From assembly GCA_017992005.1 (NCBI GenBank), contig JAGOPO010000016.1, forward strand, positions 1-17,798: 17,798 nucleotides of DNA, in the 5' to 3' direction. The notes beneath the pieces were generated by a model. It saw nothing but the letters and a program-made list of their open reading frames with translations, ran no database searches and was not told where the DNA came from. The stretch comes from Minisyncoccota bacterium. GTDB taxonomy: Bacteria > Patescibacteriota > Minisyncoccia > 2-02-FULL-40-12 > GWA2-44-9. Both the position numbers and the translations under genes were made by a program. Shown here piece after piece: positions 2,024 through 9,363 of the stretch (its first letter is position 1; each line of letters begins with the position of its first letter).

Positions 2024-2052
2024 TTGTGAAATAAAGTCGGTGTGGTAATAAT
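2024..2052 (+). promoter_or_regulatory. Candidate sigma70-like promoter for the giant surface-protein operon (TTGTGA, 16-17 nt spacer, TAATAAT)
   Basis: TTGTGA at 2024-2029 and TAATAA(T) at 2046-2052, in the 87-nt gap between fba and the giant gene. There is no terminator after fba, so read-through from fba is also possible. Confidence 0.25.
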
Positions 2053-2098
2053 CTATGACTAACTAATCTCAGCGATTTTGTGTGACGTCTTTTGCGTT

Positions 2099-5000
2099 AT
2101 GCTCAGTGGCTGGAAAACATACACCGTGAATACTCGCACTGTGACTGGATGGACAGCGAAAGCGTTCGTAGTATCAATGATCGCTTTGCTCGCTGGCGTC
2201 GGCAGCGCGCAGGCAACGATAACGGGATTCAGTCTTGTCTCGCCAGATGGCGCTCCCGTTGAGTGGCGTGGTACACAGAACATAACGTGGAATGCAACTA
2301 CCATTCCAGGGGGCAGTAATAACGTTTCTATTGTTCTCTCTACTGACAGCGGTGCAAACTACAATAAGCTCGTCGCATCTCCGGTTGATGCAACACTCGG
2401 AACATATTCTTGGAGTACGTCTTCAACATTGGTTGGCGCGCTTGCTGATGGCAATACCTATCGTATGCGCATTAATGATGGGGTCACTGGTCTCGATACT
2501 TCGAGCGTTGACTTTGTCGTTGACAATACATCACCGACTACTTCTATTGGTTTAGTTCCTTCTGCTCCAGATGGCCTTAATTCCTGGTACGTAACAACCC
2601 CAACCGTAACGCTGACTTGCGCTGACGGTGCTATCGGTAGTGGCTGTCTCAGCGGTGGCACTAAGTATCGTTGGAACGGGGGATCGTGGAATACATACAC
2701 GGTTCCTTTTGCTGCGCTTGAGGGATCAAACACGCTCGAATGGTATTCGGAAGATGAAGCGGTGGATGCTGTGGGAATTCATAATGTAGAAACAACGCAT
2801 TCGCAGATCATTACAGTTGATACTACACTCCCCACGGTTGCGATCACGTCAACAACTTCTGATGGGTTCTACAATGCTGGGGACTCTATCAATGCTACGC
2901 TGACCTTCAGCGAAGCAGTGAGTTCGAATGCGGGACTCTTGGTGACCTTTAATACGGGTGGCACCTGCACGGTCCCAGCTTTTTCAAATCAAACGGCAGT
3001 TTCTTGTGCTTATGCCGTAAGCGCATCCGAGAACGCAACTGACTTGGATGTGAGCTCGCTTACAGGCGCGACTGTAGAGGATGTCGCGGGTAATGACTCC
3101 ACGCTTAGCCCTACGGCCAACCTCGCAGTTACACGCGCAATCGTTGTCGACACGACATCGCCAAGCGCATTTACGACGGGTTCTGTCACGGTAACTGGTG
3201 GTACGGTAGTCCCTCTCTGGTGGAATTCTACCAATACGGGAGTTAATGTGGTTGTTCCCGTCGCTAACGACACATCTCTTCCTGGTGGTACGATCCAGCT
3301 TCGCGCAGAGGCCGATGGCGTTTTTGAGGATATTGGCTCGGCGGCTACTATCTTGGTGGGTGATCTTGGTGGGAGTCGCACTATTGCTCTTACCGATGCT
3401 CAGCTGGAAGCACTGGCAGGTTTTTCCGAAGTCGATGTCATTACCTTTACTGCAGTTATCACCGATAATGCAGGGAACGCTACTACTGGCGCTGTAAGCG
3501 CCACGACGTTTACTGTCGACCAGACAGCACCGTCGGTGAATGCGGGTACCGATAAAGAAGTAAATGCTTTGACGTTCCAGGATGCTACTGCAGGTGATCT
3601 TGGCTCAACGATTGCCACCTACGCATGGTCTCAGCAGGCGGGAGCTGGAGTCATCACGTTTGGTACGGGTTCCGCAGAAGATACGAATGTTTCGGCGAAT
3701 GCAGACAGTACCTATACACTGCGGTTGACTGTCACCGATGTGGCGGGGAATGTCGCGTTCGATGAGGCACAGTTTGCGTGGGATACCACGGCGCCAACTC
3801 TTGCTGAGGTGACGGCAGTCCCGACACCGACCAACGACACAACGCCCGACTACACGTTCAGTGTGAGTTCGATCAAGCAGCTTCCTGCGAGTGTTGGCGG
3901 AGGTATCTCCTATGGCGGTGATTGCAGCAGCGCAACTCTGAGTGCAGTTGCTGGGAACAACACGATTACCCTTGCTTCTCTTGCCAACGGAATCTACGGT
4001 GCGTGCACGATTGTCGTTACAGATGCCGCGGGAAATCCAAGCTCTGCGCTCACGCTCTCATCGTTTAAAATCGATACTGTTACTGCGCTGGTCACGAGCA
4101 TCACGACAACTGATGTGAATGCAGATGGAAAAGTCGAGACCGCAACGGTCGTATTTGATGACGAGGTCAAGGATTCCAGTTTTACTGGAGCGACCTTCAC
4201 CATTAGCGGTTCTGCGGCAACATTCTCGACGGGAACAGCAAACGACAATACGATTATTCTTACCGTTGCCGGTGGTGTAACGGGGACAGATGCTAAAGTC
4301 GTTGCGTATAGCGCTGGCTCAGCAACTGATCTCGCAGGGAATGCACTCTCGACATTCTCGCAGACTTCAACTGATGCCGCGGGTCCAGTTCTCCTTTCGG
4401 CCATTACCACATCTACCACGACAGCAACTGCGACATTCTCAGAAGATCTCAATGGTGTAACGGTGAATGGGAGTGGTAGCGAATTTTCTGTAGCTGGCAC
4501 AACTTCTTCTGCGGCGAGTGAAACGGGTGCAGGTGTTGTGACGCTTACCTATGCTCCCGCTCTGGGAACCGGTGCGGAGCCATTGGTTACATTCACGAAC
4601 TCAGGCACCTTCACTGATCTTAATGGCGTCGAAGCGCCAACGCCTGTGTCCGTTACTGCCGTCGATGGTGTAGCTCCATTATTGAGCTCGATTCATATTC
4701 AGTCTGACAACGCGAACGCACCAGCAGGAACTTTTGCAAAAACAGGGGATACGGTAACTATTACCTTTACCTCAAGCGAGACCATTGCAACGCCAACAGT
4801 GACGATTCAGGGTTTTGCCGCCACCGTCGATGCTCCATCGGGTAACAACTGGACCGTCCATCGCGTGATGTCAGTCACCGACACTGAAGGCGCCGTGGGC
4901 TTCTCGATAGCCTATGCCGATGATGCACTTCCAGTGGCGAACACGGGAATCACCGAGACAACAGTCGACGATTCTTCATCGGTGCTCATTGATCGCACTG

Positions 5001-8470: not shown

Positions 8471-9322
8471 ATGAAAAAATTATCCATATTTCTTGTGGTG
8501 CTAGCTCTGTCGCTGGGTAGTAGCTCATCGGCATCCGCTTCCTCGAGCACGATCACTCTTTCTCCAGCGGCTAAGTCCGTAGCACCAGGACAGACAGTGA
8601 CAGTGAGTGTGCAGATTATACCTAACGGCTCAGAGGTCACCACGGTCAAAGCAAAAATCAGCTTCCCAGCCGATATTCTTGAGGTGCAGAAGTTTACATT
8701 TGGCGATGAATGGCTTCCACTTACTCAGCCAGGCTATAGCGTTACAGACAATGTAGGCGGACTCTTGGTGAGAACTGCAGGCTTCCCAGGTGGTCTAACA
8801 ACTGCAAAAACTCTTGGTACTATTGCCTTTCGAGTGAAGGCTGCTGGAAGTGCTAGCATTATTATCACAAGCGACTCCTTACTCTTGGATCCTACGAATG
8901 TAAATGTATTTTCCGCCAGCTCTGCTTCTATGCTTACAAGCGTGCAGACAGCGGCAACACCAGTTCCAGTGATAAATAAAACTATCGCGAAATCTGCATC
9001 GCCATCTCCAAGTGTTGTCGCGAGTTCTAGTTCAGAAATTGCTCTTGTGACAACGAGCGATCGAGAGGCGGCAATAGGTACATTCTTGGGTCTTGATGTG
9101 TGCTCGAGTGCCGGACAGACGACGTGGTGGATTACTATGTTTGGACTCGCTATATTCTTGATGTGGTTTGGACGAACACGTGGGTCGTATCCATTACTCA
9201 TTCTTGCGTATTTCGTTATTTGGGCACTCTGGGCCGTACAGATCTGTTCATTCGGATTTGCTTGGCTCCCAGCAATCTTGGGTGGTGTGAGCTGGCTTGT
9301 GGCAGTACCGCGCAAGTCGTAA
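8471..9322 (+). CDS. Cohesin-domain-like surface protein with a C-terminal multi-pass membrane anchor (about 283 aa from the MKKLSIFLVV start)
   Basis: Signal peptide MKKLSIFLVVLALSLGSSSSASA. A beta-rich segment of about 140 aa shows a cohesin-like pattern: VAPGQTVTVSVQIIP...KAKISFPADILEVQKFTFGDEW...GTIAFRVKAAGSASIIITSD. This is followed by a Ser-rich linker and then three hydrophobic helices: WWITMFGLAIFLMWFG, LLILAYFVIWALWAVQI and FAWLPAILGGVSWLVAV. The track ORF starts at 8438, but the ATG at 8471 immediately precedes the signal peptide. Confidence 0.6.
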   Translation: MKKLSIFLVVLALSLGSSSSASASSSTITLSPAAKSVAPGQTVTVSVQIIPNGSEVTTVKAKISFPADILEVQKFTFGDEWLPLTQPGYSVTDNVGGLLVRTAGFPGGLTTAKTLGTIAFRVKAAGSASIIITSDSLLLDPTNVNVFSASSASMLTSVQTAATPVPVINKTIAKSASPSPSVVASSSSEIALVTTSDREAAIGTFLGLDVCSSAGQTTWWITMFGLAIFLMWFGRTRGSYPLLILAYFVIWALWAVQICSFGFAWLPAILGGVSWLVAVPRKS

Positions 9323-9330
9323 TCCGCAGA

Positions 9331-9363
9331 AAAGACAGCCCCCGTCATGGGGGTTGTCTTTTA
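9331..9363 (+). terminator. Rho-independent terminator ending the giant-protein/dockerin/cohesin operon
   Basis: AAGACAGCCCCC-gtcat-GGGGGTTGTCTT followed by TTTT. A 12-bp stem with one G.U pair sits 9 nt after the cohesin-gene stop. Confidence 0.7.

Follow-up and report, generated by a model that had tools for sequence, protein, structure and literature searches.

A giant repeat protein gene, a dockerin adaptor gene and a cohesin gene as a recurrent unit in Patescibacteria, with a proposed role in anchoring the giant protein in trans

Background

That surface proteins can be anchored in trans, by modular adaptors, is known already. In Clostridium (Acetivibrio) thermocellum the type II dockerin of CipA binds to the cohesins of the SLH-anchored proteins SdbA, OlpB and Orf2p; Ruminococcus flavefaciens has an adaptor scaffoldin, ScaC, and the glycosidase toxins of Clostridium perfringens have cohesin-dockerin pairs that are not part of a cellulosome. 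Here, we describe a stretch of 17,798 nucleotides from a Minisyncoccota bacterium (contig JAGOPO010000016.1; the whole stretch is called the window), on which the gene of a giant, apparently secreted protein with Ig, PKD and FN3 repeats is followed by the genes of a small dockerin protein, the adaptor, and of a membrane-anchored cohesin protein. The giant protein ends in an unannotated domain (the terminal domain), and genes that encode this domain are almost always followed by a gene for an adaptor with the same N-terminal peptide and one of several envelope anchors; a cohesin gene follows in all cases where this anchor is a dockerin and in none of the others.

Scaffoldin anchoring in C. thermocellum appears to be the closest functional analogue: both systems have a dockerin-cohesin tether for a very large extracellular protein, clustered genes and long linkers of the Pro/Thr type. 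The differences are that the dockerin is here on a separate small adaptor, that the cohesin is held by membrane helices and not by SLH domains, that neither enzyme nor cohesin modules were detected in the cargo and the unit has no glycoside hydrolase, and that the dockerin-cohesin leg is exchangeable for PG_binding_1 or SLH domains in relatives. The system is not a cellulosome, as it lacks enzymes and a scaffoldin: no glycoside hydrolase and only one cohesin are encoded in the window, and the dockerin protein has no catalytic domain. With ScaC and the C. perfringens pairs it shares a small dockerin intermediary that links a component to a cohesin bearer, and a use outside cellulose breakdown; unlike in these, the adaptor's other end is a peptide of ~25 amino acids, with or without a CHB_HEX_C_1 domain, and is paired with the unannotated terminal domain and not with a cohesin. 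The giant protein also resembles the LPXTG/sortase fibrillar adhesins of Gram-positive bacteria in its stalk of Ig-like repeats (PKD, Big_13, fn3), its proposed C-terminal anchoring and its presumed projection from the cell. In contrast to these adhesins, it has neither an LPxTG motif nor a C-terminal transmembrane segment and is not a sortase substrate; its anchoring is proposed to be non-covalent and in trans.

Results

The terminal domain comprises the last ~125 amino acids of the giant protein. Neither Pfam nor NCBIfam has a match to it, even when permissive thresholds are applied, and a profile search against the PDB sequences returned nothing meaningful. A search of 1.84 billion cluster representatives with a terminal-domain profile found 941 proteins with E <= 1e-3 and 495 with E <= 1e-30; this profile took in ~100 positions upstream of the domain, and part of each score therefore comes from the preceding Ig-like region. 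When one genome per GTDB species was scanned, the domain was found in 48 loci, and 43 of the 48 genomes are labelled as Patescibacteria lineages or as unclassified bacterium (among the labels are Paceibacterota, Saccharibacteria, Doudna-, Gracili-, Kaiser-, Jorgensen-, Buchanan-, Falkow-, Lipton- and Harrisonbacteria). The remaining five (L023, L047, L048, L049 and L053) are labelled 'uncultured Gammaproteobacteria'; these labels are probably wrong, as all other records are Patescibacteria or unclassified. The domain is usually found at the very C-terminal end of its protein (length 400 to more than 2,700 amino acids), but it directly follows the signal peptide in about a quarter of the loci and is internal in two loci, thus a free C-terminus is not required. 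An AlphaFold2 (AF2) model of the domain is a beta-sandwich (pLDDT 78.8) with weak resemblance to the N-terminal domains of glycoside hydrolase family 123 (GH123) and to donor-strand pilins; in two independent searches the fold matches were enriched for donor-strand-exchange pilins, and the model resembles FimA, FimG, PapE, CsuA/B, CfaB and CanX.

For 47 terminal-domain loci, sequence downstream of the gene was available. The median distance to the next open reading frame (ORF) on the same strand is 22.5 nucleotides (range -1 to 148), and in 44 of these loci this ORF encodes a signal peptide, an ASEVTGTLxTG motif, a linker and an anchor. The motif, in full A-S-E-V-T-G-T-L-S-T-G-[LVI], stands directly behind the signal peptide (median start at residue 24.5); Gly4 is present in 44/44 and Gly9 in 39/44 adaptors, and the consensus of the whole peptide is SEVTGTLxTG[LVI]..G..G.V..P. 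A Pfam scan of the 47 adaptors found CHB_HEX_C_1 in 38, Fn3_assoc in 37, Dockerin_1 in 18, PG_binding_1 in nine and SLH in two; with profiles built from the loci themselves, the number with a dockerin is 22. Most adaptors also have a poly-Gly run. The constant part of the adaptor is thus the N-terminal peptide, usually with the CHB_HEX_C_1 domain and the poly-Gly run. Its variable part is, by domain assignment, a module of a type known to bind a component of the cell envelope (dockerin, PG_binding_1 or SLH), and the dockerin-cohesin pair appears to be only one among several interchangeable anchors.

The adaptor of the window and the 88% identical adaptor of L007 have no CHB_HEX_C_1 domain and consist of the peptide, the Pro/Gly linker and the dockerin only: tethering is therefore the sole evident role of these minimal adaptors. 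One variant (L046, 8399-8893) has neither a dockerin nor a peptidoglycan-binding domain; it continues with ...VPNLPNAGAGG..., a hydrophobic segment and RRIT, an end reminiscent of the sorting signals of sortase substrates or of a direct membrane anchor. In two loci (L009 and L028) a second large protein is encoded 3' of the adaptor that has no terminal domain and carries the whole adaptor module fused to its C-terminus: peptide, CHB_HEX_C_1 domain, poly-Gly run and PG_binding_1 domain are present in cis (L009 9655-14931, L028 2706-8285) and nearly identical to the adjacent adaptor. A large protein 3' of the adaptor of L045 (10249-14676) has a poly-Gly run and an SLH domain in cis. This pattern points to recombination of adaptor genes with the 3' ends of large genes, and the L009/L028 fusions support the idea that it is the job of the adaptor module to anchor large repeat proteins.

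To avoid circularity, the association was also examined in the reverse direction: metagenome contigs were searched by the pattern of the adaptor peptide alone ([AG]SE[VT]TG[TSG]L[STM]T, from a 7-row alignment). This returned 27 confirmed loci, and in all 26 with enough upstream DNA the terminal domain is encoded immediately upstream, its match ending between 75 nucleotides upstream of the adaptor ORF and slightly within the longest-ORF start call. None of 157 retrieved proteins had both the terminal domain and the adaptor peptide (a strict regular expression for the end motif missed 98). The window has both parts of this system next to each other, the terminal domain with its GSYSTSYG end and the adaptor (Table 1). 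An earlier note on this DNA, made from its letters alone, had suggested that the C-terminal ~130 amino acids of the giant protein might be what the downstream proteins recognise. The associations in both directions fit a recognition site at this position, but its partner is likely to be the conserved N-terminal part of the dockerin protein, and not the dockerin or the cohesin.

The type of adaptor predicts the third gene. In the loci derived from GTDB, a cohesin gene follows 22 of 22 dockerin adaptors (including those of L018 and L031) versus none of the 25 others (Fisher p = 6.7e-14), and in the metagenome loci 21 of 21 dockerin adaptors versus none of six others (four with PG_binding_1, two of another type); combined, this amounts to 43/43 versus 0/31. 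In all cases in which the contig reaches to the end of the cohesin gene, the encoded protein has a membrane segment at its C-terminus. This is a single helix in relatives, whereas the window protein has three hydrophobic segments, split by GRTRGS and CSF.

Dockerins have two repeats of ~22 residues with calcium-binding Asp/Asn at loop positions 1, 3, 5, 9 and 12. The two repeats of the window dockerin (Table 1) have such Asp/Asn loop residues, and the protein matches Pfam Dockerin_1 (PF00404; 1.1e-6, 29.1 bits, cut-off 22.9) and NCBIfam dockerin_GC (29.4 bits, cut-off 29). The cohesin protein, identical over its 283 amino acids to NCBI protein P0001, matches Pfam Cohesin (PF00963; 3.5e-7, 30.9 bits, cut-off 24.1). 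The top Foldseek matches of its AF2 model (pLDDT only 62) are solved cohesins: 7urp (1.5e-4), then 6kgf, 5nrm and 2vn5; also among the matches are 2jh2 and 2vo8, cohesin-like modules of C. perfringens. By their sequences the two proteins belong to the dockerin and cohesin families, and they would be expected to bind each other in a calcium-dependent manner.

The earlier note had regarded its idea of a functional unit as untenable should the order giant-dockerin-cohesin be absent from relatives. This order recurs in 22 loci (19 GTDB genome loci, L001, L007 and the window) and in 21 further metagenome loci. Eight loci with the triad are from genomes labelled as Saccharibacteria, L012 and L017 being examples. 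The genes that flank the triad differ between the loci, which identifies the triad itself as the conserved unit. With the cohesin protein as query, a homology search returned only two relatives, P0002 and P0003. P0002 is encoded on an 11-kb contig (L001), where the gene of a 1784-amino-acid Ig-repeat protein is followed after 9 nucleotides by that of a 202-amino-acid protein and, 1 nucleotide further, by the cohesin homologue. In the 202-amino-acid protein there are a poly-Gly run and a dockerin, the large protein shares the end domain of the giant protein, and the flanking genes (fmt and def, on the opposite strand) are unlike those of the window. P0003 belongs to a different kind of cluster on L002 (7520-12083; also on L003-L005, all JGI metagenome contigs), which encodes a GH5 cellulase (629 amino acids), a cohesin protein (196), a protein with cohesin and dockerin (P0003, 290) and one with cohesin and SdrD_B (398); this looks like a miniature cellulosome and is not the giant-adaptor-cohesin system.

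The giant protein is encoded by a single long ORF and its repeats (Pfam PKD, Big_13, fn3 and Pur_ac_phosph_N) are as first described; from the ATG at 2099 its length is 1971 amino acids instead of the 1,972 given before. It was also described correctly as free of a dockerin, an LPxTG motif and a C-terminal anchor: we found no LPxTG, no calcium loop of the dockerin type and no hydrophobic run before its end (...SYSTSYGIKSN). Its N-terminal domain of ~130 amino acids has no family match. Like the giant protein, the dockerin and cohesin proteins start with a plausible signal peptide. Because of the repeat architecture of the giant protein and the epibiotic or parasitic lifestyle of the few cultivated Patescibacteria (PMC10633639, PMC10936435), it may act as an adhesin, a surface fibre or a host-attachment protein; of the characteristics of fibrillar adhesins, an Ig-like stalk is present and the anchor is proposed to be in trans.

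The three genes are probably co-transcribed. They are separated by the 5 and 13 nucleotides reported before, terminator-like sites within the unit are restricted, on the + strand, to ones with stems of 5-6 base pairs and poor T tails, and the strong hairpin behind the cohesin gene, at 9330-9362, is real (0/200 shuffled sequences were as stable). In five relatives the adaptor and cohesin genes overlap by 13 nucleotides, which suggests translational coupling of the two. The candidate promoter in front of the giant gene is present but matches at only 9/12 positions, and the window has 8 such promoter-like sites with 8.5 +/- 3.2 expected by chance. An equally good site lies within the 3' end of the dockerin gene, and transcription may therefore also start internally, ahead of the cohesin gene.

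Table 1. Features of the giant-adaptor-cohesin unit and of the genes upstream of it (positions in the window)
Feature	Position	Strand	Remarks
Unknown gene	48-1154	+	upstream of the aldolase gene
Class II fructose-bisphosphate aldolase gene	1151-2011	+	
Promoter-like site TTGTGA-17-AATAAT	2024-2052	+	in the 87-nucleotide gap between aldolase and giant gene; 9/12 positions match; support from position only
Giant gene (secreted Ig/PKD/FN3-repeat protein)	2099-8014	+	ORF opens with TTG 2078, first ATG 2099, stop TAA 8012-8014
Signal peptide of giant protein (amino acids 1-39, ending SAQA)	2099-2215	+	sequence reading
Terminal domain, giant amino acids 1845-1971	7631-8011	+	motifs NGWxWxFxVTVP, RFYSAQ, GRQ, GSYSTSYG; proposed docking site of the adaptor
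Adaptor (dockerin) gene, 145 amino acids	8020-8457	+	ATG 8020, TAG 8457; signal peptide, N-terminal peptide, Pro/Gly linker, dockerin
Conserved mature N-terminal peptide of adaptor, amino acids 28-52, STTEGTIQTGVITGNGGIGGTVATP	8101-8175	+	motif present in 44/47 adaptors
Pro-rich and poly-Gly linker of adaptor	8176-8301	+	16 consecutive Gly; sequence reading
Dockerin, two calcium-loop repeats DINSDGLLDLLD and DLNHDGVVDIFD	8302-8454	+	Pfam PF00404, NCBIfam dockerin_GC
Internal promoter-like site TTGATA-16-CATGAT	8411-8438	+	within the 3' end of the dockerin gene, shortly before the cohesin gene; 9/12, equal to the upstream site
Membrane-anchored cohesin gene, 283 amino acids	8471-9322	+	ATG 8471, TAA 9322
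Signal peptide of cohesin protein	8471-8539	+	
Cohesin domain	~8540-8932	+	followed by a Ser/Pro linker
Three hydrophobic segments of cohesin protein	9119-9307	+	
Intrinsic terminator hairpin closing the unit	9330-9362	+	-28.4 kcal/mol, z = -5.6

Discussion

We consider it probable that the giant protein is exported and then held at the cell by its terminal domain, which would bind the N-terminal part of the adaptor, the dockerin of the adaptor binding in turn to the membrane-anchored cohesin. The giant protein, which has no anchor of its own, would be secreted via its cleavable signal peptide and dock with its terminal domain, non-covalently, on the conserved N-terminal part of the adaptor, the product of the next gene. 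The C-terminal dockerin of the adaptor would bind the cohesin of the third protein with calcium, the C-terminal helices of the cohesin protein would hold it in the cytoplasmic membrane, and the long Pro/Gly linkers could allow the assembly to reach across the wall. Elsewhere among the Patescibacteria this adaptor has a peptidoglycan-binding or SLH domain in place of the dockerin, and a cohesin gene is absent from those loci. Domain identities, gene order and the associations in forward and reverse direction are the observations from which we infer the two binding steps, terminal domain to adaptor and dockerin to cohesin. A covalent link between the partners (isopeptide, ester or sortase-like) was considered and rejected: the Lys in the MKF motif is variable (Ser in P0005), no His is found among the invariant columns, and the domain, which is also found at N-termini and within proteins, does not need a free C-terminus.

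The terminal domain could conceivably hold the peptide in a donor-strand-like manner. Its model resembles subunits of chaperone-usher pili and archaeal cannulae, and, as in donor-strand systems, the adaptor peptide is at the mature N-terminus, with small or hydrophobic residues at V2, G4 and L6 and an invariant G4; a conserved Gly is also found in the N-terminal extensions of Fim and Pap subunits. The small or hydrophobic residues alternate with the polar E1, T3, T5 and S7, a pattern that would be expected for a strand with one buried face and that is suggestive only. In contrast to the donor-strand systems, the window has no chaperone or usher gene and the peptide is internal in the fused variants. 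We regard a donor-strand-like insertion of the adaptor peptide into the terminal domain as rather doubtful.

Several points weigh against our proposal. The fused proteins of L009 and L028 hold the adaptor peptide internally and have no terminal domain in the same protein; a free N-terminus is therefore not needed, which tempers the donor-strand idea, and the peptide may in part be a structural lead-in to the CHB_HEX_C_1 domain and not a dedicated ligand. As regards the unit itself, promoter-like sites such as the upstream one are no more frequent than expected by chance, and another stands ahead of the cohesin gene. Moreover, many loci are kin by descent and some metagenome loci are near-duplicates, so that the counts overstate the number of independent events, which is below 26 in the reverse test.

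The CHB_HEX_C_1 domain of most adaptors is of glycosidase origin, and the terminal domain could accordingly bind a glycan of the envelope or of the host directly, like a carbohydrate-binding module, the adaptor being a separate wall protein with no link to the giant gene other than shared regulation. This is unlikely in our view, as it leaves unexplained why terminal domain and adaptor are near-obligate neighbours in both directions, why an adaptor can be reduced to peptide, linker and dockerin and why the envelope anchor is the adaptor's only variable part. Equally unlikely is that the three proteins are secreted neighbours without contact and that the dockerin-cohesin pair serves dockerin proteins encoded elsewhere. 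The window covers only 17.8 kb of the genome, and other uses of cohesins do exist in such organisms, as the GH5 cellulase beside several cohesin proteins on L002-L005 illustrates; however, chance neighbourhood is hard to reconcile with an association of 44/47 in the forward and 26/26 in the reverse direction, in many lineages and with differing flanks, and with a dockerin protein that has no cargo domain of its own.

The enrichment of donor-strand-exchange pilins among the fold matches of the terminal domain would also agree with an adaptor that is not an anchor but a factor of assembly or polymerisation, which caps or nucleates fibres of the giant protein by strand exchange. We think this very improbable: there is one terminal domain per protein and no matching donor peptide within the giant proteins, no chaperone or usher is encoded in the window, and the C-termini of the adaptors are all envelope anchors. 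Anchoring of the giant protein in trans, by adaptor and exchangeable envelope module, thus remains the explanation that we favour.

No description of the giant-adaptor-cohesin arrangement was found in the open-access literature, and both the terminal domain and the adaptor head are absent from current domain libraries. An essential dockerin protein, SEML1_0315, is known from Southlakia epibionticum (PMC10633639). It was rejected as a member of a triad, being a stand-alone protein of 927 amino acids with unrelated neighbours, and Pfam identifiers for cohesin, dockerin or CHB_HEX were not found in the text supplements of that paper. The most highly expressed genes of unknown function in methanogen-parasitising Paceibacteria include ones for proteins that have peptidoglycan-binding domains and similar predicted structures (PMC10936435). 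Highly expressed proteins of this kind are PMX_810_sub_00350, PMX.50_00411 and PMX.108_00302, and they might be adaptors of the PG_binding_1 type.

There is a real chance that the pair of peptide and domain represents a new docking mechanism. A bolder version, to which we give a fairly low probability, is that terminal domain and N-terminal adaptor peptide are a new docking pair specific to Patescibacteria, which could use beta-strand insertion and would combine interchangeable giant adhesins with interchangeable envelope anchors. If true, this would be a general rule for how the wall-bearing, host-dependent bacteria of the Candidate Phyla Radiation (CPR) display their largest surface proteins and possibly attach to their hosts. 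The system bears on how Patescibacteria build their surface and hold on to host cells; most of their large surface proteins are unannotated. The genomic rule of a terminal domain and an adaptor gene would flag hundreds of candidate surface fibres, and the type of adaptor would name the envelope component for each fibre: membrane cohesin, peptidoglycan or the ligand of an SLH domain. The use of cohesin and dockerin would be extended to a structural role that is not cellulolytic. The rule also defines a small peptide-domain pair that is accessible to recombinant proteins and, if the contact is real, a possible new module for tagging or display.

Other features of the window

The cohesin gene is followed by the gene of ribosomal protein L25, further housekeeping genes and three tRNAs on the + strand; an Rfam scan of the window found these three tRNAs only. 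Positions 11989-14715 (+) encode a 908-amino-acid protein that matches Pfam MVP_shoulder (3.4e-21) and Vault_3 (2.7e-10). In the PDB it matches the eukaryotic major vault protein (MVP) with an E-value of ~2e-9 (query 474-781 versus MVP 456-779), and it appears to be a bacterial homologue of the protein that forms the vault shell. The GC content of this region is 0.57-0.585, compared with ~0.50 elsewhere in the window, and the gene was possibly acquired horizontally. Close to the end of the window, an ORF for a GIY-YIG nuclease (17111-17449, +; 2e-15) lies between tRNA-Tyr (17107-17191) and tRNA-Thr (17452-17526), and overlaps tRNA-Tyr if the GTG start is used.

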